DNA from: Nanobdellota archaeon
Lineage (GTDB): Archaea; Nanobdellota; Nanobdellia; Pacearchaeales; GW2011-AR1
NCBI GenBank assembly: GCA_038045765.1
Contig: JBBSXN010000005.1
Location: 226,144 to 290,143, forward strand
DNA length: 64,000 nt
Reading direction: 5' to 3'
Shown: piece by piece, positions 58,030 through 59,388 of the stretch
Numbering within the stretch: the first letter of the stretch is position 1
Layout: each line of letters begins with the position of its first letter
Made by a program: the position numbers and the translations under genes
Notes under the pieces: model-generated
The model's input: only the letters and a program-made list of their open reading frames with translations
Database searches by the model: none
Told to the model about the DNA's origin: nothing

Positions 58030-58054
58030 AGTTACAAATAGAAAGATTTAAAAG
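58030..58054. repeat. 25-bp direct repeat copy 1 (agttacaaatagaaagatttaaaag)
   Basis: Exact match to 59364-59388. Each copy lies ~22 nt upstream of a start codon (58077, 59410). Confidence 0.75.
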
Positions 58055-58076
58055 GTTAAAATTTGAGAATAATAAT

Positions 58077-58538
58077 ATGAATCCAAGATATATTACAACT
58101 AGGAATAGTCCATCTAAATTACTTTTAGATAAATTAGCTTGGGCGCACCAAGTTTATCATGCTAATTTAGGCTGGTTTGCAGATAAATATTCTATTCAAG
58201 AGGATTTGCCTAAATTTAAAGATATAAAATCGGTTTTTTTAATAGGTTCTCACGCTACTAAAGATAACTGGCATGATGATACAAGTGATGTTGATTTTAA
58301 ATTTCATATACCTGGTTTGACTTCTATGTACGCTCAAATTTACAAGAAAGAAGTATTAGATAAATTACTTCATGATGGGGAGAAAAGAGATTGGGTTGAT
58401 CTGTGGTTTGCTCAAAGAGACGATCAAATTACACATCCCAGATATAGTTTAACTAAACACTGGAATAAGTTTAATAAAACCCCTCAGGCAGTTTTGGGTA
58501 GAGCCCAGATAGGCCAGCTTGAACACCAGGCTCAATAA
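58077..58538 (+). CDS. nucleotidyltransferase-fold protein
   Basis: FLIGSHATKDNWHDDTSDVDF fits the GS-x(n)-DxD Pol-beta-type motif. Confidence 0.4.
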   Translation: MNPRYITTRNSPSKLLLDKLAWAHQVYHANLGWFADKYSIQEDLPKFKDIKSVFLIGSHATKDNWHDDTSDVDFKFHIPGLTSMYAQIYKKEVLDKLLHDGEKRDWVDLWFAQRDDQITHPRYSLTKHWNKFNKTPQAVLGRAQIGQLEHQAQ

Positions 58539-58544
58539 TTTTCT

Positions 58545-59339
58545 ATGGGAAAATATATCGGAAAACAGATACTTAGAGAAATTGAAGATAAACAAAGAGA
58601 GTTAGAACGTCAAATGAATCATCCTCTCGGTTTCATTATAGGAAGTTTTCATATGCGTTCTTTAGAAAATGAGGCTGTTCTTCATTCTTTTAAAATAGAA
58701 TATCCTGATAAATTTAAGCATGGTTCAACACAGTATGATACTCATGCAAGTGGTAGAAATAAGAAAGAGGGAATTAAAGCTTTAGAAAGAGCATTTACTT
58801 ATGGCTCTAATCATTTTAAGAGAGATAAACCTGAAACTTTTAATGATTCTTTAATTCAAGGTATTGCCGGTAGAATCGGACATAATACTTTTAATTCTAA
58901 TGAAGCTCCATATCGTAAAAAATCAGTTAGTATCGCGGGTGCTTCATGGAAACCTCCTTATCCCGATAAAATTCCAGATCAGCTAGCTAGTTTCTTTTAT
59001 GATATCTGCGAGATATTGAAAGATGATTCAGTCGGTGCTACAGTTGAAGCTGCTGCTTTTGCTCATTTAAATTTAGATCGTATTCATCCTTTTATTGATT
59101 GTAATGGAAGAACTTGCCGAACTGTTCAGAATGTAATCTTACGTTCTAAAAACTTACCACCACCAGTTATTTATTCAGGAGAAAGATTTGATTATTATGG
59201 TCATCTGCAGAGAGGGATTGAAGGATTACAATCAAGACCTACTTCTTTGGACTATTCAAAAATTTCTAGAGGTGAGAGAGACTTTTATGATTATATTGGA
59301 AGCATGGTTTCTGCTTCACTTGATAGATTACTCGATTAA
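58545..59339 (+). CDS. Fic/Doc-family protein
   Basis: HPFIDCNGRTCR is a variant of the Fic motif HxFx(D/E)GNGRxxR, with Cys replacing the first Gly. Confidence 0.55.
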   Translation: MGKYIGKQILREIEDKQRELERQMNHPLGFIIGSFHMRSLENEAVLHSFKIEYPDKFKHGSTQYDTHASGRNKKEGIKALERAFTYGSNHFKRDKPETFNDSLIQGIAGRIGHNTFNSNEAPYRKKSVSIAGASWKPPYPDKIPDQLASFFYDICEILKDDSVGATVEAAAFAHLNLDRIHPFIDCNGRTCRTVQNVILRSKNLPPPVIYSGERFDYYGHLQRGIEGLQSRPTSLDYSKISRGERDFYDYIGSMVSASLDRLLD

Positions 59340-59363
59340 GTAGTATTGTTATAACTATCTAGA

Positions 59364-59388
59364 AGTTACAAATAGAAAGATTTAAAAG
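59364..59388. repeat. 25-bp direct repeat copy 2
   Basis: Exact match to 58030-58054. Confidence 0.75.

Follow-up and report, generated by a model that had tools for sequence, protein, structure and literature searches.

Why does one and the same 25-bp sequence stand twice among accessory genes within a run of housekeeping genes? The question is raised by a 64,000-nucleotide (nt) stretch of the genome of a Nanobdellota archaeon (contig JBBSXN010000005.1, positions 226,144 to 290,143; referred to here as the window), in which three open reading frames (ORFs), P1 (153 aa), Fic (264 aa) and P3 (333 aa), lie between the gene of a GalE-like epimerase and gatE, and the sequence AGTTACAAATAGAAAGATTTAAAAG occurs exactly at 58030-58054 and 59364-59388. 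A first-pass annotation had read the first two genes as a mobile toxin/antitoxin (TA)-like module bracketed by the repeats and had offered, as the alternative, a promoter element common to an island. The evidence supports this alternative: the repeats belong to a promoter-plus-palindrome element that stands ahead of unrelated genes in many genomes, and its two copies probably head two accessory cassettes, one stacked behind the other in a replacement slot that recurs across the lineage between gatD and gatE.

A promoter-plus-palindrome element at a fixed distance from start codons

The coordinates of the repeats proved exact, as did their placement about 22 nt ahead of the start codons: the copies end 22 nt before ATG 58077 and 21 nt before ATG 59410. 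The 25-mer is the longest string common to any two gene-upstream regions of the window (the runners-up measure 18, 17 and 15 nt), and no third match with up to three mismatches was found in the 64 kb, dinucleotide-preserving shuffles also yielding zero. The similarity is longer than the 25 nt first described. The 25-mer opens with AGTTACAA, which forms the right arm of an inverted repeat; the left arm lies 7 nt upstream (58015-58022 and 59349-59356), and the whole element of ~41 bp reads TTGTAACT-N7-AGTTACAA, followed directly by ATAGAAAGATTTAAAAG, a transcription factor B recognition element (BRE) and TATA box. With the A of ATG 58077 as +1, the palindrome of copy 1 spans −62 to −40 and its TATA box about −30 to −24. 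The position weight matrix (PWM) score of the element is 54.1 bits for copy 1 and 54.0 bits for copy 2.

Comparison of the two copies showed a full match of right arm and BRE/TATA box and a single-base difference in the left arm, whereas the spacer differs at 7 of 7 positions and both flanks differ. Arms and BRE/TATA box have thus been kept while spacer and flanks diverged, indicating selection on functional positions rather than a recent duplication.

We surveyed the 70 nt upstream of all 52 larger ORFs in the window for promoters. Where that region is intergenic, most genes show a TATA-like box that begins 27-30 nt ahead of the ATG, so that leaderless transcription is probably the rule in this genome, the mRNAs of both units included. 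The TATA boxes of the two copies begin at −30 and −29, within the norm of the window, and both copies have the layout of an archaeal BRE/TATA promoter, with TTTAAAA at −30 to −24 from the ATG and AGAAAG ahead of it. A Shine-Dalgarno-like ATGAAAGGAGGT(A) upstream of 11990, 24672 and 49495 marks an apparent leadered minority among otherwise leaderless-looking genes. Scans for bacterial sigma-70 promoters and terminators are uninformative for an archaeon.

The BRE/TATA half ATAGAAAGATATAAAAA also precedes a gene at 48540 (−), without the palindrome, and a similar form stands before 25507. Thus, the 3′ part appears to be a general strong promoter and the palindrome the specific part. We rejected a generic promoter as the identity of the whole element: the 13-mer AAAGATTTAAAAG, with up to two mismatches, was found 22 times against 16 expected in the window and is not enriched, and the palindrome is confined to the two copies and one degenerate copy. 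This third copy stands out against 20 shuffles, which yielded no PWM hit of 10 bits or more, and it starts exactly 61 nt from ATG 43751 (−). The ORF opened by this ATG (43497-43763 region) is ~84 aa long, contains a lipobox, is lipoprotein-like, and has no Pfam match.

Beyond the window, loci were found either through homologous proteins or by a pattern scan (loci carry L numbers). All of the protein-anchored loci L001, L005, L006, L008 and L011 have the element 20-22 nt before the first ATG, next to proteins only 43-62% identical to those of the window (for single proteins: Fic 88% in L001, which has the exact 25-mer at 7955-79, and 43% in L005; P1 57% and Fic 48% in L006/L007; P3 49% in L008-L010 and 45% in L011). 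The degenerate pattern TTRTAACT-N8-GTNACAAATRGAAAGRTTTAA matched 21 GTDB species-representative genomes, once each, and 62 metagenome contigs; the genomes are labelled as Pace-, Woese- or Nanoarchaeota or as ‘archaeon’, and one record is titled ‘bacterium’. In 31 of 59 unique instances an ATG lies at offset 61 from the element start. An origin from viruses was rejected on zero matches of the pattern among the viral contigs of IMG/VR, plasmid collections being outside this search. Altogether, 95 element-bearing loci were collected in Woese-, Pace- and Nanoarchaeota. Among them, the P3 homologues of L008, L011 and L045 carry the same element, and in L065 it stands ahead of a 117-aa ORF that is followed by the gene of TATA-binding protein. 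In a non-gatE island (L072, metagenome contig Ga0209541_10001285, ~2233-7685) the element is present three times, always 61 nt ahead of the start codon of an unrelated gene (131, 204 and 421 aa); interspersed with these are a pair of 85 and 110 aa that is TA-like by eye and a 414-aa gene that is ATPase-like by eye.

Table 1. Features of the locus, in window coordinates
Feature	Coordinates	Strand	Description
Left conserved flank	55816..58004	+	gatD 55816-57087, GalE-like epimerase 57087-58004; synteny in L001, L073, L083 and others
Element copy 1	58015..58055	+	TTGTAACT 58015-22, spacer TGAGGAT, AGTTACAA 58030-37, BRE-like ATAGAAAG 58038-45, TATA box TTTAAAA 58047-53
P1	58077..58538	+	153-aa minimal Pol-beta-type nucleotidyltransferase (MNT-like; plausible), first gene of predicted bicistronic unit, rare family
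fic	58545..59339	+	264 aa, class II FICD-like; starts 6 nt after P1 stop, no own promoter
Recombination tract versus L001	59205..60411	+	fic 3′ end diverged, downstream cassette unrelated, identity resumes at gatE promoter
Element copy 2	59349..59389	+	left arm TTATAACT (one mismatch), spacer ATCTAGA, AGTTACAA, ATAGAAAG, ATTTAAAAG; ATG 59410
P3	59410..60411	+	333 aa, GlnE/DrrA-type protein-adenylyltransferase fold (modelled), DPANN family
gatE TATA-like box	60414..60423	+	CTTTAATAAT, 29 nt before ATG 60444; right conserved border of variable slot
Right conserved flank	60444..63622	+	gatE 60444-61895, 113-aa membrane protein 61930-62271, aspS 62306-63622
Degenerate third copy	43772..43812	−	ATATCACT-ATAGAGA-AGTAACAA-ATACAAAC-ATTTAAAT; PWM 19.6 bits

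Cassette turnover between gatD and gatE

Most of the element loci lie at one genomic address. Thirty-five of the 95 have gatD upstream and gatE downstream, and a further 31 show only one of these genes, nearly always with a truncated flank on the opposite side, so that 66 of 95 loci show a gatD and/or gatE context. The distance from the element to the gatE start ranges from 546 to 2430 nt, with the window holding the largest slot, and the interval is occupied by one to three genes drawn from ~20 unrelated protein families. Fic proteins are found at 13 loci in three subtypes, one of them with the His-less motif QPFxxGNKR; F6, a family of 263-285 aa to which no function was assigned, at eight; P3 and a weakly AbiEii-like nucleotidyltransferase (NTase) family at six each; and a truncated protein resembling class I lysyl-tRNA synthetase (PF01921, 5.6e-10) at five. 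Further occupants are a pair of ~90-aa proteins, an RNA ligase (PF09414), a metallophosphoesterase, P1 and several uncharacterised proteins, several of which carry, by eye, NTase-type GG/GS...DxD motifs. Profile searches of F6 and of the family typified by L024 against the PDB returned nothing significant. In the PADLOC models, Fic matches SoFic (3.6e-15) and PDC-S04 via the common Fic domain only, P1 and P3 have no match, and the other slot families none except for a weak AbiEii hit (E 0.005). The slot is rich in ATP- or NTP-dependent modifying enzymes (Fic, NTase folds, RNA ligase, the aminoacyl-tRNA synthetase-like protein), a striking composition.

A PWM scan revealed extra copies of the element in the window (between P1-Fic and P3), in L001 (between Fic and a 231-aa NTase-like gene), in L062 (between F6 and Fic) and in L072, and in L099 P1 is directly followed by another copy with the identical 25-mer. 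Since extra copies occur only where unrelated cassettes are stacked (plus L072 and L099), a cassette can be defined as one element with one to three genes, and cassettes stacked in the slot each carry their own copy. In the window, the repeats do not bracket a two-gene module as first described: copy 2 is the upstream region of a third non-housekeeping gene, P3. Across Woese-, Pace- and Nanoarchaeota, the slot from gatD(-galE) to gatE-aspS holds alternative cassettes, each led by its own element. A specific functional link of P3 to gatE was considered and rejected, as P3 homologues at 35-42% identity do not adjoin gatE; the adjacency of the two genes therefore reflects the slot.

Close relatives show how the content of the slot changes. 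In L001 (GatE 96%, GalE 94% identical) the order is galE-element-Fic-second element-231 aa-gatE, without P1 and P3, the 231-aa gene being a different NTase-like gene. In L083, L087 and L089 (GatE 90%) it is galE-element-F6-gatE, F6 being there an unrelated 263-aa gene; these loci provide the relatives that the first-pass annotation had called for, with a GalE-GatE interval lacking all three window genes. Copy 1 after galE has the identical 25-mer in L001 and L083 and differs by one base in L073. The nearest relatives have kept copy 1 and the gatE promoter: similarity ends right after the TATA box and resumes at AAAACTTTAATAATCCC, and L001 and L083 have nearly the same gatE TATA-like box as the window, placed directly behind unrelated cassettes.

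Nucleotide identity of fic between the window and L001 is 0.87-1.00 over nt 1-660 and 0.48-0.68 over the last 135 nt. At ~59205, inside fic, lies a breakpoint of homologous recombination, and with the exchanged tract come copy 2 and the cassette behind it. Both gatD and gatE are likewise mosaic, and the second copy of L001 has diverged (44.6 against 54.7 bits by PWM). In the protein of the first gene behind the element in L054, ~40 N-terminal residues of the L024-type family (SYVDAMKQASELI...NPDFVVSPMNGS) are fused to the body of a 231-aa-type NTase-like protein, a chimera that looks like a scar of cassette replacement. An SYV-DMKEAS-like motif also opens family F46. We propose that cassettes are swapped by homologous recombination via the conserved borders, the element on the left and the gatE promoter on the right, or via common cassette genes. 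Of the overall picture drawn in the first-pass annotation, the exchange of accessory genes between genomes is thus upheld, whereas a repeat-bounded mobile TA module is not.

The arrangement resembles the replacement-type flexible genomic islands known from streamlined marine bacteria, and hot spots of accessory genes such as defence islands, in its fixed, core-bounded site, its unrelated content in close relatives, and its mosaic identity with a breakpoint. It differs from them in that the slot is very small (0.5-2.4 kb, one to three genes), that every cassette is led by the same element, and that it splits the genes of the two GatDE subunits.

A second comparison is with integron cassette arrays, in which genes of unrelated kinds likewise stand in tandem at a single platform and are each accompanied by a short, imperfect palindrome. 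On an integron-like reading, the palindrome of the element would be an att-like site at which promoter-led cassettes are captured by a recombinase encoded elsewhere, with a real but secondary promoter role. Several observations fit: a copy of the palindrome stands at the head of each stacked cassette, in close relatives the variable part begins on its left side right behind the element, and Fic, P3, F6 and NTases recur in the slot of genomes whose GatE is only 50-60% identical. P3 keeps a degenerate element even outside the slot, two of three distant homologues that do not adjoin gatE retaining a ATAGAAAG-RTTTA promoter with a decayed palindrome. Moreover, an IS66-family transposase lies immediately upstream of element-P3-gatE in L009/L010 (458-1660). 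Yet this is the sole mobility gene seen adjoining the slot; among the loci inspected, no other integrase, transposase or recombinase is linked to it. The only mappable breakpoint lies inside fic, as is typical of homologous recombination, and the chimeric N-terminus in L054 suggests imprecise exchange. The arms measure just 8 bp, copy 2 cannot form a hairpin, and no copy was found on the viral contigs of IMG/VR. The palindrome is also 5′ of the genes and fused to a promoter, in contrast to the 3′ attC sites of promoterless integron cassettes. We therefore consider an integron-like capture system unlikely, and prefer a replacement slot with homologous exchange.

An 85-aa gene and a PIN-domain gene (VapBC-like) lie between gatD and galE in L001 (6350-6971) and also in L073; the window lacks this pair, its gatD and galE genes overlapping at 57087, so that the neighbourhood of the slot contains a second indel site. 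In L098 (533-841), a P1 homologue is followed by a gatE truncated after 47 codons; behind it come a further ATAGAAAGATATTTAAAG promoter and an ORF that contains a LAGLIDADG-like motif (LGNFMADGSF), which may represent a homing-endonuclease insertion in gatE. The 490-nt gap between proS and gatD (55328-55815) is locally the GC-richest region (0.375) and contains a 65-aa ORF (55545-55742) that is also called in L001; no Pfam or Rfam match was found in the region of this ORF.

Three candidate nucleotidyl-transferring enzymes

The payload of the window slot comprises an MNT-like NTase, a FICD-like Fic protein and an adenylyltransferase of GlnE/DrrA fold, which would most likely all nucleotidylylate (AMPylate) macromolecular targets.

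No sequence match was found for P3 in Pfam, NCBIfam, PADLOC or the PDB, and 44 homologues were collected. Its AlphaFold2 model, built with 43 homologues (pLDDT 93.7, pTM 0.92), retrieved DrrA (6yx5_B, E 3.7e-6), and GlnE (3k7d, 4e-6, and 1v4a, 7e-6) with Foldseek at template modelling (TM) scores of 0.52-0.57 and probability 1.0; the matches comprise the DrrA AMPylation domain and both adenylyltransferase domains of GlnE (E 4e-6 to 1e-5). The model thus has the NTase plus helical domain fold of a GlnE/DrrA-type adenylyltransferase. The signature G62-S-D-A-R-L-E-K-G-P-V-S73-L-I-E76 is similar to the GlnE-type motif, and G62, S63, D64, R66, E68, K69, S73 and E76 are invariant in the 43 homologues. 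P3 resembles GlnE and the AMPylation domain of Legionella DrrA/SidM over the full length of the model and in the G-S-x-x-R-x-E...S-x-I-E signature; it differs from them as a single domain of 333 aa for which no sequence-family membership was detected and in its first carboxylate position, which is Leu and variable in the family.

The Fic-family call of the first-pass annotation is borne out by PF02661 (45.7 bits against a cut-off of 24) and by the motif HPFIDCNGRTCR. The protein combines the inhibitory motif S48-F-K-I-E52 with the active-site motif H181-PFIDCNGRTC-R192, in which seven of the eight specified positions of the core motif HxFx(D/E)GNGRxxR are canonical and Gly6 is replaced by Cys. 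A HMMER scan gave 172 Fic cluster representatives at E<=1e-10. Position 6 is varied across the family (G in 120, T in 12, A in 6, C in 5, S in 3 and I in 1 of 147 representatives), indicating that the Gly-to-Cys change is a tolerated substitution. A profile built from 47 of the 172 representatives matches human FICD with E 4e-29 and aligns the family motif hS-x-x-iE on FICD HTVAIEG; S48, E52, H181, D185, N187, G188, R189 and R192 are invariant in the 47 sequences. The invariant S48-x-x-x-E52 aligned to FICD TVAIEG marks the protein as a compact class II Fic with autoinhibition in cis, and we count the class II consensus (S/T)xxxE(G/N) as present, with Tyr instead of Gly/Asn at its last position in the window protein. 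In FICD, the Glu equivalent to the inhibitory Glu also enables de-AMPylation. The window protein shares with FICD/HYPE, class II Fic proteins and SoFic the fold, the core motif and the N-terminal S/T-x-x-I-E; in contrast to FICD/HYPE, it has only ~260 aa, lacks tetratricopeptide repeats and a membrane anchor, and carries Cys at motif positions 6 and 11 as well as Tyr after the inhibitory Glu. Among the representatives compared, the second Cys is found only in the window and L001 proteins, and C186 and C191 (DCNGRTCR), five residues apart in the active-site loop and helix, may form a redox-sensitive pair. Over nt 1-630 of fic, the ratio of nonsynonymous to synonymous changes (pN/pS) between the window and L001 is 0.16, indicative of purifying selection.

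The assignment of P1 to the Pol-beta NTases, as first proposed, is plausible, with Pfam Polbeta at E 7e-4 but at 20.1 bits below its cut-off of 26.9; NCBIfam MntA gave E 0.05. Only six homologues were found among 5.8 billion protein clusters, and G57, S58, D71 and D73 (D71-V-D73) are invariant in the six. The AlphaFold2 model of P1 has a pLDDT of 79 and finds as its top Foldseek match the MNT antitoxin 8xeo (probability 0.8, E 0.05), together with HEPN-MNT complexes, at TM scores of 0.37-0.50. A gap of 6 nt without a TATA box separates the P1 stop from the fic start, and the two genes overlap in L006; they are predicted to be co-transcribed as a bicistronic unit. A second NTase-containing pair may lie at 47484-49373 (−), where downstream of the gene of a TrmB-family regulator (48660-49373) come those of a 162-aa protein and of an overlapping Pol-beta NTase of 192 aa (Polbeta 5.9e-10; MntA-like 2.8e-7); the promoter of the 162-aa gene shares ATAGAAAGATATAAAAA, without the palindrome.

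With these assignments, the proposal of a mobile TA-like NTase-Fic module inserted among housekeeping genes, the 25-mers being a target-site duplication or att sites, can be weighed. The repeats are exact and flank two accessory genes, the pair is missing from close relatives, and P1 and Fic are adjacent again, with overlapping genes, in L006/L007. Moreover, the antitoxins of HEPN-MNT systems are small NTases and toxins are known among Fic proteins (matches to MntA, E 0.05, and SoFic, 3.6e-15), and the P1-Fic pair resembles HEPN-MNT (type VII) and class I FicT-FicA systems in that the gene of a small MNT-like NTase lies immediately upstream of, and would be co-transcribed with, that of a potentially toxic enzyme. 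However, no HEPN partner is present, and the obligate co-occurrence of a TA pair, be it of the class I FicT/FicA or the type VII MNT type, was not found: fic occurs without P1 in L001, where it is intact and under purifying selection, and in L005, and P1 without fic in L098 and L099, so the two are not an obligate pair. With its invariant S-x-x-x-E in cis, the Fic protein would need no antitoxin in trans, which also sets it apart from class I FicT-FicA.

The boundaries of the supposed module argue in the same direction. The right-hand repeat is the promoter of a further accessory gene and forms no junction with housekeeping DNA, the 7-nt spacer 5′ of the 25-mer and the 3′ flank are wholly different between the copies, unlike in a duplication, and relatives keep copy 1 followed by a different cassette instead of the empty site expected for an insertion bounded by a target-site duplication. 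Neither transposase nor integrase was found among the genes examined around P1-Fic-P3. Both observations that the first-pass annotation had named as speaking against a mobile module were made in part: many unrelated genes are preceded by the element, with the fixed 61-nt ATG offset in dozens of genomes, and the NTase-Fic pair is syntenic between gatD and gatE in another lineage (L006/L007). The region had also seemed GC-richer than its surroundings. We ruled out a GC or codon-usage island, as the GC contents of the three genes (0.335-0.340) compare with a window gene mean of 0.318 (standard deviation 0.036) and their synonymous-codon likelihood is within one standard deviation; GC at third codon positions of fic and P3 (~0.157) and the coding-strand GC skew are somewhat low. 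A mobile TA module at this locus is accordingly very improbable, and the genes are better described as the payload of promoter-led cassettes.

The palindrome as a candidate operator

What, then, would the palindrome do? It might have no role, if the second copy arose by recent local duplication or gene conversion of a promoter serving basal transcription only. The second copy of L001 is the diverged one and that of the window near-perfect, as could result from conversion or from an imported tract with a well-conserved copy. Other promoter pairs of the window also share near-identical stretches of 15-18 nt, namely those upstream of 36977 and 38098 (TTTGGCTAAATATTTATA, 18 nt) and of 43862 and 46302 (TGAATATTTATATAG, 15 nt), so that sharing of promoter sequence is not unique to the two copies. 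However, a spacer changed at every position between a right arm and BRE/TATA box that are identical and a left arm one base off, within unrelated flanks, does not fit such an origin; both arms are kept in the protein-anchored loci of distant genomes whose flanking DNA cannot be aligned, and the palindrome is missing from other strong promoters of the same genome that have the BRE/TATA half. We regard this explanation, too, as having very little to recommend it. Least credible is an action of the palindrome in RNA, be it as a hairpin at which the upstream transcript is terminated or processed or as a 5′ structural element. Copy 1 does form a hairpin of 8 bp, lengthened by flanking pairs (−10.1 kcal/mol, z −2.3), and is preceded by a T5 run (58007-58011) after the stop of the GalE-like epimerase; however, copy 2 forms no hairpin (minimum free energy −3.7, z +1.7), the arm variants TTATAACT, AGTAACAA and TGTGACAA have no compensatory change in the opposite arm, the element lies upstream of the inferred start site, and an Rfam scan found only a tRNA-Arg and no family at the element.

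The unfolded copy 2 and the uncompensated arm variants make a protein-binding DNA site more likely than a structured RNA. In the mechanism that we propose, the 3′ part ATAGAAAG-ATTTAAAAG would act as a near-consensus BRE/TATA promoter from which transcription starts at or beside the A of the ATG ~30 nt downstream, giving a leaderless mRNA, and the inverted repeat TTGTAACT-N7-AGTTACAA, abutting the BRE, would bind a dimeric transcription factor. Because the palindrome lies upstream of the BRE, activation or recruitment by this factor is more likely than repression, although the latter is possible. The two copies would then drive P1-Fic, as a bicistronic unit, and P3, so that the three enzymes would be co-regulated. 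Known archaeal BRE/TATA promoters with palindromic operators (TrmB-, Lrp- and Ptr2-type sites) and leaderless mRNAs show the same purine-rich BRE, which an inverted repeat adjoins on the upstream side, and the same TTTAAA-type TATA box beginning ~30 nt ahead of the ATG. In contrast to these, the 8-N7-8 palindrome is almost unchanged across genomes with ~50% identical proteins and heads non-homologous genes.

In L047, the element lies directly ahead of the gene of a TrmB-like winged helix-turn-helix regulator (262 aa), possibly an autoregulated cognate factor, though unconfirmed. It shares only the winged helix-turn-helix domain, with 30% identity over 73 aa, with the TrmB-family protein of the window (48660-49373, −), whose gene has a different palindrome upstream.

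Several points weigh against the picture of stacked, co-regulated cassettes in a dedicated slot. Twenty-nine of the 95 loci have no gatD or gatE nearby, although the flanks of six are ample, and the element is hence not confined to the slot. The scan pattern fixes 28 positions, and conservation inside the element is hence partly by construction, the unbiased sample amounting to ~7 protein-anchored instances. Transcription start and leaderless status are deduced from promoter geometry, and a search of the TrmB leads identified no cognate transcription factor. Homologous recombination is demonstrated at a single breakpoint, which leaves room for site-specific action at the palindrome. As for the payload, the fold assignment of P1 is weak (Foldseek E 0.05), and the catalytic motif G-x11-[DE]-x-[DE] is not found in P3, which has G62-x11-L74-x-E76 with position 74 variable in the 43 homologues; P3 lacks the first catalytic Asp and may be inactive or altered in catalysis.

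A broader reading takes the element for a factor-controlled expression platform of Woese-, Pace- and Nanoarchaeota at which horizontally exchanged cassettes are stacked between gatD and gatE, and whose payloads would be interchangeable macromolecule-nucleotidylylating effectors acting on a common target class, either the translation apparatus encoded in the neighbourhood (tRNA, GatDE, AspRS) or proteins of the host cell, these archaea living as episymbionts. The payload set would comprise the three Fic subtypes, the GlnE/DrrA-fold and AbiEii/MNT-like NTases, the truncated class I lysyl-tRNA synthetase-like protein and the RNA ligase. As a whole we give this reading only an outside chance, and that the effectors share a target in translation or in the host cell is speculative; if true, the platform would be integron-like in function but with promoter-led cassettes.

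DPANN archaea are uncultivated and their gene regulation is almost uncharted. The element offers a concrete, testable regulatory unit; nearly invariant across orders and at a fixed ATG distance, its 41 bp could provide future genetic tools with an expression signal and help to capture the factor. The gatD-gatE slot represents a small, well-bounded natural experiment in cassette turnover in streamlined genomes, and it concentrates poorly characterised enzymes, among them an unmodelled GlnE/DrrA-fold family and a compact FICD-like Fic family. More generally, an exact repeat around accessory genes may be a selected promoter/operator and not the scar of a mobile element, signs of which are a fixed distance to the ATG and a wholly diverged spacer. 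In the literature on DPANN or Woesearchaeota combined with promoter, Fic, AMPylation or island, we found no description of the element, the slot or AMPylation in DPANN, the motif sequence itself being outside this search. The 8-N7-8 palindrome thus appears to be undescribed, while its ingredients (operator promoters, replacement islands, Fic, GlnE/DrrA folds) are each known.

Elsewhere in the window, Asp-rich repeats of the DxDxDG type make up most of a 710-aa protein encoded at 41360-43492 (+), which also has a membrane helix at its N-terminus and a Cys-rich part at its C-terminus.

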